DNA of 64,000 bases from an uncultured Eubacteriales bacterium (GCA_964458655.1 CAYWJT010000001.1:4145-68144); one strand, 5' to 3'; counted from the stretch's first letter, positions 158 through 17,773 are shown. Numbers and translations are program-made. The notes: generated from the sequence alone by a model not told the origin.

Positions 158-1081
158 ATGGCTCGGACAGGGCGACGGGATTTCCTGAAGGGGACGGCGG
201 GCCTAGCTGCCGGGGCGCTGGCCGCGCAGGCGCTGGGCTTGAGCGCCTCGGACGGCCAGGATGCGAGGACGGTCTCCGGCAATGAGCCGAACGGAGCACC
301 AGGCCCCGGGACTGAAGCGGGCCTTGGGACGGCTGAAAAGAACGAGAACCGGCCCCGCTTCGCCCTCGGCCTCGCCTCCTACACCTTCCGGGCCTTCAGC
401 CTGGAGCAGACGATAGCCATGACCAGACGTCTCGGCCTGGAAGCGGTCGTGCTCAAGAGCTTCCATCTTCCGCTGGACAGCCGGCGGGAGGAGATAAGGG
501 CGGCCGCGGCCGCGGTCAGGGCCGCCGGGCTCGACCTTTACGGCTGCGGGGTCGTCTACATGACCACGGAAGCCGAGGTCGAGCAGGCCTTCGAATACGC
601 TTCCGCCGCCGCGATGAGGATGGTCATCTGCTCGCCGGCGGCCCGACTCCTGAGCCTGGTCGAGCGGAAGGTCAGGCAGACTAACATCCGGGCGGCCATC
701 CACAACCACGGCCCTGAAGATAAGATCTATCCGACGCCTGAGAGCGCCTACGAACGGATCCGGGGGCTTGACCGGCGGATGGGCCTCTGCCTTGACATCG
801 GTCACGCGGCGCGAGCCGGCGTCGACCCGGCCGAAGCGGCTCGCCGCTTCTTCGACCGCCTTTTCGACGTCCACATCAAGGACGTCTCCTCCGCGGCCCG
901 GGAGGGTCAAACGGTCGAGGTGGGCAGGGGAGTCATCGATATCCCGCGTTTCGTCCGGGAGCTGGTGAAGCTGGGCTACGCCGAGACGCTGGCCTTCGAG
1001 TACGAAAAGGACGAAAAGGACCCATTGCCCGGTCTGGCCGAGTCGGTGGGCTATGTCCGCGGCGTCCTCGCGGCTCTTTAA
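158..1081 (+). CDS. Sugar phosphate isomerase/epimerase (xylose-isomerase-like TIM barrel) with a Tat signal peptide
   Basis: GGAGG lies 7 nt before the ATG at 158. The N-terminus is MARTGRRDFLKGTAGLAAGALAAQALG, which has a twin-arginine motif. Body motifs are typical of the AP-endonuclease-2/xylose-isomerase TIM family. The ORF-track start at 122 falls inside repeat copy E and lacks an RBS. Confidence 0.75.
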   Translation: MARTGRRDFLKGTAGLAAGALAAQALGLSASDGQDARTVSGNEPNGAPGPGTEAGLGTAEKNENRPRFALGLASYTFRAFSLEQTIAMTRRLGLEAVVLKSFHLPLDSRREEIRAAAAAVRAAGLDLYGCGVVYMTTEAEVEQAFEYASAAAMRMVICSPAARLLSLVERKVRQTNIRAAIHNHGPEDKIYPTPESAYERIRGLDRRMGLCLDIGHAARAGVDPAEAARRFFDRLFDVHIKDVSSAAREGQTVEVGRGVIDIPRFVRELVKLGYAETLAFEYEKDEKDPLPGLAESVGYVRGVLAAL

Positions 1082-1126
1082 AAAGGGAACGGTTTACCCG
1101 TTCACCTGTTTTTCGGCCCGGACGCT
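1081..1126. repeat. Diverged copy A of the 22-bp motif plus a 24-bp extension that it shares with copy B
   Basis: gggaacggtttacccgttcacctgtttttcggcccggacgct matches copy B over about 46 bp, with 5 mismatches. Confidence 0.55.
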
Positions 1127-1234
1127 TCGACGGACATAAAGAAAGTCGAAGGAGACGACCGGGGCGAGGGCCGTCAGCCCGACTGAAACGCGCTGGAACC
1201 GGCTGACGAAGTCGCCGTCAGTCGCGTTGCTCAT
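1094..1234 (-). CDS. Possible 46-aa small protein with a hydrophobic core; its last codons are encoded by repeat copy A
   Basis: GGAGG lies 8 nt upstream of the ATG at 1234. The translation is MSNATDGDFVSRFQRVSVGLTALAPVVSFDFLYVRRSVRAEKQVNG. It ends SVRAEK..., the same residues that end ArsM, which are encoded by copy B. Confidence 0.25.
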   Translation of the reverse strand: MSNATDGDFVSRFQRVSVGLTALAPVVSFDFLYVRRSVRAEKQVNG

Positions 1235-1262
1235 GGCCGTCGCCTCCCGATATGGGAACGGT

Positions 1263-16332: not shown

Positions 16333-16619
16333 CAAGGAGGCCGCTCCTCTTGCACACACATTTGTTGGTGCACGGGAGACAATATTTGGCAGTGGGACGA
16401 ATGCTGCGGCTACTGTTATAACAGAGAAATGGGGCTCTGGCTGGACTGCTGCAATAATACTTGCGGCAATAATTGATGCCCGGACCGCCTTAACTTCCGA
16501 CCCGACGATTCCCTATCCTGAGCCCATCAGGGTAAAATCATAAAGGTGGGCTATCCCGGCTGCTCATGCAGTGAGAAATACTACCGGTCCATGTCGGGTA
16601 TAGGAAAGGAGCGGTATCC

Positions 16620-17648
16620 ATGAAGTCATCGAAGTATGCACGGCAGATGATGTTATTCGCCGGGCTTTTGCCGATGGTCATAAGTTGCGGCGGGCCGAGA
16701 CAGGAAACGATAAAAGTGCAACCGATAGAGATAGTCGCTTCGTTCCCTGGAGAAGAGCTTTCCGGTCAGAGCGTATTCTTGAACGGGGCCCTTTATTTCG
16801 CGCATGACGATCAGCGGACTTTTTTCATTTCGAATACTAGAGAAGGGAACATCCTTCGGTTTGATGCGGAAGGCAATTATGTTGAGACAATCGGCCGCAA
16901 GGGCCAGGGCCCGGGAGAACTATCATATATCAACGATATAATGGTGATTGACGATGAAATAGCTGTTCAGGACATCGGGAACCATAAAATTCAGTTCTTC
17001 AGCAAGGAGGGGAAGCCTCGGGACAGTTTTCGCACGTTTAAGACCTATCGCGGCATGGCTTATGATAAGAAGAGGGGCTTGATCTATGCCGCTCCGATGC
17101 TCAGCAGGCCGGATGAGGAGCTCGTTGACGTGTTGGATCTCAACGGGAAGCTTATACGCTCCTTTGGCAAGCCTCTTGAGTTCGAGCGGAAATGGACGCA
17201 ATTGAATATGGTTAATCTTTCCCTTACCGATGGCGACGAGCTGCTTTTGGCCTTTGTCTTTTTCCCCATAATCAGGAAATATAGCCAGGAGGGGAACCTC
17301 CTGACGGAAAAGCACATCGACTACGGCCCCTGGCGAGAAAAAGAGGCGAATAATATCGCGGCTTATAAAGACAGTTTGGCGAGTGCGATCAACCCGTCTT
17401 TCTATGCGGTAATGAATGCGATCAGGAATTGGAAACGGCGGCTTTTTATTTTAAGCTTGCTGCCGGAAAGAACCATCCTGGAATTGGACGCGGCACTCCG
17501 CGTCAAGAGTGTCTATCTTGATGCGAACCGGAGCGATTATTTCGCCGTTGATTTCATTGTCAGTGAAGATGAGGGGGGACTGAAGTTTTATGTCCTGCAG
17601 GTTATGCCCGAAAACGTAGTCGACGTCTTCGGCTATAAAAAATACTAA
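16620..17648 (+). CDS. NHL-repeat / 6-bladed beta-propeller lipoprotein, paralog 2
   Basis: AAGGAG RBS. Lipoprotein signal LLPMVISCGG. IGRKGQGPGEL NHL repeat. The conserved blocks are colinear with paralog 1. Confidence 0.7.
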   Translation: MKSSKYARQMMLFAGLLPMVISCGGPRQETIKVQPIEIVASFPGEELSGQSVFLNGALYFAHDDQRTFFISNTREGNILRFDAEGNYVETIGRKGQGPGELSYINDIMVIDDEIAVQDIGNHKIQFFSKEGKPRDSFRTFKTYRGMAYDKKRGLIYAAPMLSRPDEELVDVLDLNGKLIRSFGKPLEFERKWTQLNMVNLSLTDGDELLLAFVFFPIIRKYSQEGNLLTEKHIDYGPWREKEANNIAAYKDSLASAINPSFYAVMNAIRNWKRRLFILSLLPERTILELDAALRVKSVYLDANRSDYFAVDFIVSEDEGGLKFYVLQVMPENVVDVFGYKKY

Positions 17649-17663
17649 ATGAAAGGAAGGTAT

Positions 17664-17773
17664 CATCGACAACACCCAGGTTCACGCGGCCGTCCGCAAG
17701 GCCCTGGGCTTCTGACATTCCCTCACGGTCCGGGATTATTTTCGGCACCCCTTGAATCTCGCGCCGCGGCGAT
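17664..17773 (+). repeat. Right copy of the ~110-bp direct repeat
   Basis: Its first 55 nt differ from the left copy at 1 position (tcg to gcg). The following non-coding 55 nt are about 70% identical to the left copy. Confidence 0.8.

Follow-up and report, generated by a model that had tools for sequence, protein, structure and literature searches.

How can accessory genes come to lie between long direct repeats in a bacterial chromosome when no mobility gene accompanies them? The question is raised by a DNA stretch of 64,000 nucleotides (nt) (GCA_964458655.1, CAYWJT010000001.1:4145-68144; the whole of it is referred to here as the window), where three repeat pairs, R1, R2 and R3, flank a sulfatase-TPR gene, a BNR-propeller/TPR gene and an island with two NHL-type beta-propeller lipoprotein genes (NHL1 and NHL2), respectively. 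The entry names an uncultured Eubacteriales bacterium; the genomes closest to the window are metagenome-assembled genomes (MAGs) of Candidatus Aminicenantes (aminotransferase identity 85-88%), and its source is an uncultured Aminicenantes bacterium. The best reading of R2 and R3 is that they are scars of duplicative integration that took place without a dedicated recombinase. R1 is a duplicated terminator-like element, whose tie to the gain of the sulfatase gene is not established. The region as a whole is probably a hot spot of the flexible genome, located on either side of a conserved lipid-type operon, with repeat pairs left by recombinase-free recombination and not by a mobile element. The coordinates of all features are collected in Table 1.

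R1 is 48 nt long with 91.7% identity between its copies (E 4e-12), and its longest perfect run is only 18 nt. R2 consists of two parts, a of 122 nt at 95.9% identity (E 1e-50) and b of 56 aligned columns at 83.9% (E 7e-9), with a longest perfect run of 64 nt (8127-8190). R3 extends over 108 columns at 89.8% identity (E 8e-34), with a longest perfect run of 36 nt (14856-14891). A preliminary description of this DNA had reported repeats of 46, 185 and 110 bp; all three pairs exist where it had placed them, but its descriptions of R1 and R2 need correction. Apart from these pairs, the 64 kb contain a single direct repeat with a length of at least 40 nt and an identity of at least 80%, and it is located within two paralogous M14 peptidase genes.

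Sequences identical to the window's aminotransferase, M28 peptidase and other proteins are found on the JGI metagenome contig 3300043177, on two shorter contigs from other samples and on a 141-kb NCBI contig. Contig L002, from another sample, equals window positions 7126-9971 at 100% identity, and Logan contig L164 equals positions 10834-14885 at 100% identity. Both ends of L164 fall within the longest perfect-identity runs of R2 (10800-10863) and R3 (14856-14891), the places where a k-mer graph breaks if both repeat copies are present. The three repeat pairs are real, far beyond chance and reproduced in three independent assemblies. Chimeric joins of strain variants could produce similar pictures, as the window stems from a metagenome assembly and the divergence of 4-16% between repeat copies is comparable to that between strains. 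However, the same junctions recur at 100% in contigs of other samples and assemblers (L001, L002 and L164), and three contigs of a sister lineage likewise show the R3 structure, so that an assembly artefact is extremely improbable.

The gene order in relatives shows that two of the three bracketed units are insertions. In six loci (L005, L006, L070, L085, L090 and L091) the aminotransferase gene is followed by the M28 peptidase gene after 100-230 bp, and in five of them (not in L091, where the contig ends earlier) the alkaline phosphatase gene comes next and converges on a homologue of the window gene at 24389-27946. As the relatives keep the aminotransferase and M28 genes adjacent, the BNR-TPR gene is an insertion. 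The block from the NHL genes to the alpha-2-macroglobulin gene is likewise an insertion, since it is absent between the alkaline phosphatase gene and the convergent gene in relatives. Three gene insertions had been proposed: those of the BNR-TPR gene and of the NHL island are borne out by this gene order, but that of the sulfatase-TPR gene is not shown. The open reading frame orf121 and the alpha-2-macroglobulin gene (17649-24251) are also missing from relatives at this position, which indicates that they were gained earlier, on the downstream side of the alkaline phosphatase gene. The alignment of two window spacers with those of distant relatives was uninformative, the sequences being too diverged.

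The same aminotransferase/M28 junction is occupied in an Aminicenantia MAG (L003, 11246-13757) by a YaaH/SatP-like gene together with a gene for a major facilitator superfamily transporter, with no flanking repeats. The junction is considered a hot spot because it holds different inserts (the BNR-TPR gene or the pair in L003) or none (L005 and L006).

A sister population was found in four other samples by means of a 97% identical NHL1 protein and near-identical AMP-ligase and sulfatase proteins; its nucleotide identity to the window is 94-98.6%. The comparison of presence and absence between the two lineages gave a divided result: the BNR-TPR site is empty in the sister, but the R3 pair and the sulfatase gene are present there. 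The empty site was seen in a single sister contig (L174, aminotransferase gene 98.6% identical), in which the complete gene and one spacer are followed by the sequence found downstream of R2-right in the window, and which contains neither the BNR-TPR gene nor the aminotransferase fragment. Contig L169 of the same sample shares a 134-nt overlap with it, with a single mismatch, and extends into the alkaline phosphatase gene. The empty site fits a locus that was never occupied as well as one from which the gene was excised.

The right copy of R2 is not a duplicated gene end. It opens with an in-frame internal piece of the aminotransferase gene (nt 757-876 of 1248), which is joined at GGCATCCTCAAG straight to a copy of the spacer downstream of that gene; the corresponding point of the spacer has GGCTTCCGCAAG, and the 434 bp that would separate the two parts are missing. 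Over 122 positions, this fragment has 5 differences from the window gene and 3 from the sister gene, while other relatives are at most 88.5% identical, and it shares with the sister gene two states that are ancestral or the commonest in relatives. Its source is the same species-level lineage, because it is closest to the window and sister genes, and judging from these differences the copy would date to about the time of the window/sister split. Such closeness fits a duplicated target or a donor that was a close relative. Ahead of the BNR-TPR gene a promoter-like TTGACT-18-TAGGAT arrangement is present, the -35-like box of which comes from the spacer end of R2-left. The word-indexed search for a donor of the BNR-TPR gene gave at best 38% identity over half of the protein, and the exhaustive HMMER search gave one 65% match, limited to the BNR half and in an unrelated context, with no donor or alternative insertion site.

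The start of the BNR-TPR reading frame (8744) is a TTG codon without a ribosome-binding site. An ATG at 8787, with a strong GGGGGAGG site 8 nt upstream, lies one base out of frame and reaches a stop after 8 codons; dropping one T from the T6 run at 8807-8812 would yield a canonical signal peptide (MKARAGVFLVVVLALSASLQGAKA). The gene could be frameshifted, or the anomaly could be due to a homopolymer error or to slippage; the start region is the same in L001 and L002.

R3 is the pair that has the arrangement as it was originally described, with the resident alkaline phosphatase gene keeping its 3' end, followed by the insert and by a second copy of the 3' end with the downstream spacer. The island has a GC content of 40-52% against ~65% in the flanks. 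Both copies of R3 occur in the sister contigs L167 and L169 (~96% flank identity; L168 spans only the right copy), and the insertion therefore predates the split of the lineages. In the sister only NHL1 is intact; NHL2 is reduced to a 78-nt fragment with the loss of ~0.8 kb (L167, 3695-3772), and R3-right, without its first 29 nt, is fused to this fragment at CCGCAAGG(G)CC. The differences in an alignment of the four R3 sequences are mostly private to one sequence. A 7-nt patch that seemed to be swapped between R3-left and R3-right across the lineages was considered as evidence of excision and re-integration and was rejected, as the two states are reverse complements (AAATAAT and ATTATTT). With short complementary flanks on both sides (14899-14915 and 17730-17746), the patch is more simply read as a probable hairpin-loop flip, which would mimic a cluster of substitutions.

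The search with orf121 returned only itself and the sister copy, and hence no empty R3 site was found. In orf121, the sole in-frame start codon is located within the end of the NHL island, and the first ~35 codons run through the alkaline phosphatase remnant in another frame. In the sister (L167, 3741-4076), orf121 starts at a different ATG within the NHL2 fragment, and the conserved part of the protein opens with a signal-peptide-like stretch.

The second copies were hit by microhomology-bounded deletions: R2-right lost 434 bp, R3-right of the sister lost 29 nt, and R1-left is absent from the sister. The sister also lost 1.9 kb of its M28 gene at the 10-nt microhomology CGGCTCGGCC (L169, 130-230, versus window 11067-12950), and microhomology-mediated deletion is frequent in this locus. 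Thus, the second copies look like decaying relics. The proposal that the bracketed units behave as excisable cassettes is overstated. In its full form, the proposal would have recombinase-independent cassettes loop out as circles through RecA between repeats of 50-600 bp and re-enter by Campbell-type integration at the same gene tail, and we consider it doubtful. If it were true, accessory genes would be shuttled through Aminicenantes populations with no dedicated mobility gene, the empty BNR-TPR site of the sister would be an excision product, and hairpins and terminators at operon ends would be preferred entry points. RecA-type excision as such may be possible in R2 and R3, given their 64 and 36 nt of perfect identity.

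R1 is of another kind. About 37 of its 48 nt belong to a dispersed element (AAAWAWGGGGACAGTTTACTCRTTCACCTATTTTTC), composed of an A-tract, a small hairpin and a T-tract, of which five copies (c1 to c5) lie in the first 5 kb. They occur in both orientations, all of them intergenic at gene ends, with one occurrence per intergenic region up to the operon that begins with the ACPS gene. No copy was found elsewhere in the 64-kb window or in 161 other fetched loci. The inverted pair c1/c2 folds into a hairpin with an 18-bp stem followed by a T-run (-38.6 kcal/mol, z -4.7). R1-left (c3) has a perfect 6-bp hairpin between its A-tract and T-tract, which on its base pairing looks like a bidirectional terminator, and three of its four differences from R1-right (c4) improve the pairing. 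The 37-nt element may be a family of terminators, a repetitive extragenic palindromic (REP)-like element or a regulatory site.

On the minus strand, R1-left also contains a copy of the methyltransferase gene's final 20 nt with the stop included, and this copied tail partly overlaps the 37-nt element. Beyond the element, 12 nt (GGCCCGGACGCT) located in the methyltransferase coding tail are common to c3 and c4 only. As these are missing from the other three copies, the c3/c4 pair was copied from the c4 locus. In the sister lineage the MazE and methyltransferase genes, c4 and the sulfatase gene (94.4% nt identity) are all present; c3 and ~130 further nt are absent, and the sulfatase stop lies 14 nt from that of the xylose-isomerase-like gene. 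The segment that distinguishes the window from the sister is 168 nt long and is bounded by the 10-nt direct repeat GGGAACGGTT.

R1 may therefore consist of two members of a locally spreading terminator or REP-like family that flank the sulfatase gene by chance and mark no insertion. The clustering of the copies at gene ends in both orientations, the strong hairpin of c1/c2, the improved terminator hairpin of c3 and the sister's sulfatase gene without c3 speak for such a family. Meanwhile, the shared GGCCCGGACGCT means that at least this pair was copied from the c4 locus and not as a free element, and the five copies, with none in the 161 other loci, are all that is known of the family. We give this explanation of R1 a chance slightly short of even. 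The claim that all three units share one architecture is in any case not upheld, since R1 belongs to a local terminator-like family and its left repeat is absent from a sister that has the sulfatase gene, and since the R2 copy is gene-internal. What remains of the common scheme is R3 as it was written.

The copies c4 and c5 are inverted relative to each other (29 of 30 positions identical) and lie on either side of the methyltransferase/MazE unit, where no target duplication is seen. A Xer/dif site, an attC site, a Tn3-type inverted repeat and an extracytoplasmic function (ECF) sigma factor promoter were considered as candidates for the 37-nt element and compared with it by eye, and none fitted.

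The absence of mobility genes from the window was confirmed. The Pfam scans of its major open reading frames (ORFs), a few of which lacked a Pfam match, revealed no integrase, transposase or recombinase domain in the 64 kb. The tRNA scan of the window found no tRNA gene, and Rfam at a permissive threshold gave nothing relevant. End-to-end inverted alignments at the ends of the three cargoes scored within shuffled controls and thus gave no terminal inverted repeats, and no motif common to the six junctions was found, only GC-rich 9-14-mers at chance level. The flanking repeats measure 48-166 nt, as compared with target-site duplications of 2-14 bp for transposons. Together with the missing transposase, inverted repeats and junction motif, this agrees with the earlier view that they are not transposon footprints. 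The arrangement is also not that of integron cassettes, as there is no shared junction motif and no integrase and the cargoes lie on both strands.

Degenerate integrative elements would be another source of such repeats. The units would then be satellite islands or cis-mobilizable elements (CIMEs) whose attL and attR sites arose through a tyrosine or serine recombinase that is encoded elsewhere and targets gene 3' ends, and they would have carried a replacement 3' end. A gene 3' end with its stop is indeed reconstituted in R1 (20 nt) and R3 (54 nt), and the R2 unit is present in one of two close lineages and absent from the other. However, no integrase is encoded in or near the units or across the 64 kb, three different recombinases would be needed as no core or motif is common, the gene-internal R2 copy restores nothing, and the repeat copies are undergoing truncation. 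We regard this origin as very unlikely.

With no inverted repeats above controls, no junction motif and no recombinase, recombination by host functions is left as the route. For R2 and R3, a gene or a small island would have been linked to the chromosome at one end through sequence that it had in common with the tail and spacer of the resident gene and at the other end by an illegitimate joint. A circularised fragment may have been integrated by a single crossover (Campbell-type), the joining may have been homology-facilitated illegitimate recombination, or related chromosomes that differ in gene order may have undergone an exchange. Each of these routes would leave the resident gene intact and a redundant copy of its tail and spacer beyond the insert. 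This second copy would have no function and would be eroded by microhomology-mediated deletions. For R1, the event would have been the copying of a local terminator-like hairpin element together with 12 nt of the methyltransferase tail.

A different way to the same product would be duplicative insertion in situ by replication template switching, similar to microhomology-mediated break-induced replication (MMBIR) or fork stalling and template switching (FoSTeS), or by double illegitimate recombination. A fork stalled at a hairpin-rich operon end would copy the cargo and return upstream, leaving a long 'target duplication' with no need for an anchor or a donor relative. Every resolvable junction and later deletion lies at short imperfect microhomology, R2-right is a chain of three segments joined at microhomologies, no imported tract is visible beside the repeats, hairpin or terminator sequences are present at R1 and in one surveyed locus (L147), and the GC content of the BNR-TPR gene is native-like, all of which would suit template switching. 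On the other hand, cargo 3 is clearly foreign in composition, so that at least its template was not the host chromosome, there is no second copy of any cargo in the 64-kb window, and the experimentally documented duplications of 100-950 bp are single-crossover integrations. We therefore consider template switching unlikely as the general explanation. Campbell-type integration, illegitimate recombination, chromosome exchange and template switching yield the same product and are not separable with the present data.

Such an architecture is not peculiar to the window. The self-comparison of 160 related loci (2.18 Mb) showed gene-bracketing direct repeats in ~10-12 of them, in several phyla. This corresponds to a rate of ~1 per 180 kb as compared with three in the 64-kb window (Poisson probability ~0.006, a post hoc value based on crude gene calls). 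In an Aminicenantes locus (L091, 638-2405), a complete DUF302 gene is followed by a Fic/RhuM gene and by a second DUF302 3' end of 105 nt with 94% identity to the first. Duplicated terminators surround a nucleotidyltransferase/substrate-binding (HEPN-MNT-type) gene pair in L147, and repeats surround an M4 peptidase gene in L152 (222 nt), a TonB-dependent receptor gene in L013 and a gene with a type IX secretion system (T9SS) sorting domain in L022. As other loci and phyla contain similar cases, we take the architecture to be a general by-product of gene gain, concentrated locally at both edges of the conserved operon. The view that it is a route of this lineage is therefore too narrow.

The copy of the DUF302 3' end in L091 retains its own diverged stop region. 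A segment of L003 (7436-7480) is 96% identical to L091 in the flank and is without the entire 4 kb.

Several points weigh against our reading of the region as a whole. No donor and no circular or linear intermediate was seen, and the route is read from the product alone. The sliding divergence profile against the sister showed no imported tract beside the repeats; such a tract would have been the clearest indication of a diverged donor. The patchwork of R2-right (cargo, gene-internal piece, spacer) is equally well explained by replicative template switching. Upstream of the ACPS gene there is no synteny in relatives, none of which has the xylose-isomerase-like and methyltransferase genes adjacent, and the 168-nt difference between the window and the sister may be a gain or a loss. 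Finally, the survey of other loci relied on crude ORF calls and on classification by eye.

For R2 and R3, integration by host recombination is nevertheless the reading that we prefer. The scars are of a known kind, well documented here, and do not point to a new mobility system. Bacteria gain most of their genes at hot spots without mobile elements, and how the joining took place can seldom be seen later; here the scars are readable, and the sister shows an empty site and stepwise erosion. The locus thus preserves, for an uncultured phylum, a natural record of insertion without a recombinase and of later clean-up by deletion. This lends support to the idea that single-crossover or illegitimate recombination, known mainly from laboratory models, contributes to accessory-gene gain in the wild.

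Between R1 and R2 lies the conserved operon for ACPS, an AMP-dependent ligase, an acyl carrier protein (ACP) and a Kbl/Spt-like aminotransferase, the gene order of which is the same across loci L003-L162. Identity of the aminotransferase is 77-88% among MAGs with the labels Aminicenantes, Bacteroidales, Zixibacteria, KSB1, Cloacimonadota and others, which is unusually high for such distant groups. The operon may resemble bacterial sphingolipid-type clusters. Farther downstream, the tandem M14 carboxypeptidase paralogues (29173-33173) have in common a 73-nt repeat (84%) encoding a D-N-D-G-D-G calcium-binding-like motif.

Table 1. Repeats, element copies, cargoes and genes in the window (positions counted from its first nucleotide).
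Feature	Position	Strand	Remarks
Element c1	61-97	+	Inverted pair with c2, upstream of the xylose-isomerase-like gene
Element c2	117-145	-	Inverted pair with c1
Xylose-isomerase-like TIM-barrel protein gene	158-1081	+	Probable start 158
R1-left (c3)	1079-1126	+	Copy of the 37-nt element at 1079-1115
10-nt direct repeat GGGAACGGTT	1085-1094 and 1253-1262		Bounds 168 nt present in the window and not in the sister
Sulfatase-TPR gene	1263-3440	-	Bracketed by R1; Pfam Sulfatase and TPR; probable ATG at 3410
R1-right (c4)	3442-3489	+	Element part 3442-3479; overlaps the true methyltransferase 3' end
S-adenosylmethionine (SAM)-dependent methyltransferase gene	3469-4302	-	Resident gene of R1; Pfam scan; stop 3469-3471
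MazE-like gene	4318-4590	-	Next after the methyltransferase gene
Element c5	4796-4833	-	Inverted relative to c4; just upstream of a promoter-like site of the ACPS operon
ACPS/AMP-ligase/ACP/Kbl/Spt-like aminotransferase operon	4929-8611	+	Conserved
Kbl/Spt-like aminotransferase gene	7364-8611	+	Last operon gene, resident gene of R2; 1248 nt; Pfam; synteny in ~150 loci
R2-left, part a	8118-8239	+	Internal aminotransferase segment, nt 755-876
R2-left, part b	8662-8714	+	Spacer after the aminotransferase gene, with a TTGAC -35-like box at its end
Cargo 2	8715-10790	+	BNR-TPR gene with a 46-nt tail; lacking in the sister lineage and in relatives
BNR-propeller/TPR ORF	8744-10744	+	Pfam scan
R2-right	10791-10956	+	Aminotransferase fragment (10791-10912) fused to spacer copy (10901-10956)
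M28 peptidase gene	11127-13289	+	Pfam; directly after the aminotransferase gene in relatives
Alkaline phosphatase gene	13283-14884	+	Resident gene of R3; Pfam; JGI start 13325
R3-left	14831-14937	+	Last 54 nt of the alkaline phosphatase gene and 53 nt downstream
Cargo 3	14938-17661	+	~58 nt GC-rich, then 40-52% GC island with two NHL genes
NHL1 and NHL2	15304-16332 and 16620-17648	+	DUF5128/NHL-type beta-propeller lipoprotein genes
orf121	17649-18014	+	
R3-right	17662-17769	+	Second copy of the alkaline phosphatase 3' end with own stop codon and downstream spacer
Alpha-2-macroglobulin gene	18021-24251	-	

Among the known systems, Campbell-type integration is the closest in the form of its product, in which heterologous DNA lies between direct duplications of the homologous segment and the resident gene is intact on one side; R2 and R3 both have this form. 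When non-replicating DNA with one homologous segment was introduced into E. coli, mostly single crossover of circles, in which the homologous segment was truncated, led to duplications of 109-950 bp (PMC3240628), as compared with 48, ~166 (possibly ~595 originally) and 108 nt here. The route through homologous anchors put forward in the preliminary description thus has an experimental precedent and the expected product form, but it is deduced only from that product. The identity of at least ~25-30 nt that RecA-type recombination requires is reached by R2 (64 nt) and R3 (36 nt), not by R1 (18 nt). In contrast to the laboratory case, no plasmid or circle is seen here, and the copies are 4-16% diverged and partly deleted, which points to old events. 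A circle of this kind would have had to combine a host-like anchor with foreign cargo, and the cargo proteins had no close homologues that would reveal a donor molecule, apart from the sister's NHL1.

Homology-facilitated illegitimate recombination has reportedly been described by de Vries and Wackernagel in 2002 and by Prudhomme and co-workers in the same year. The likeness lies in one homologous anchor, one illegitimate joint, no recombinase and a 3' end remnant downstream of the new genes. In its classic form recipient DNA is deleted, whereas here there is a duplication, and the cargo is no polymorphic toxin module. This mechanism was proposed for the displaced gene 3' ends in orphan arrays of type VI secretion system (T6SS) effector-immunity genes and of Rhs/contact-dependent inhibition (CDI) genes (PMC5361080).

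A duplicated 3' end of a protein gene with a preserved stop is a classic signature of integrative islands. Like these islands and CIMEs, R3 has direct repeats with a gene 3' end and stop that bracket genes of foreign composition; unlike them, the units described here have no integrase and no shared core, one repeat is gene-internal, and the copies are decaying. The literature search for Aminicenantes together with direct repeats gave nothing.

The 37-nt element shares with REP sequences, bacterial interspersed mosaic elements (BIMEs) and miniature inverted-repeat elements its short length, multiple intergenic copies, hairpin formation, both orientations and one inverted doublet. It differs in that its five copies are clustered and no RAYT/transposase gene or target-site duplication was found; this unit of A-tract, weak hairpin and T-tract may be nothing more than a set of related terminators.

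Hot spots of gene gain are reported to lie between persistent genes, mostly without mobile elements (Oliveira et al. 2017, as cited in PMC12359135). The aminotransferase/M28 interval, the accessory genes of which vary between relatives, agrees with this concept. The concept itself is silent on flanking duplications; in this locus, the scars hint at the mechanism by which the genes were joined.

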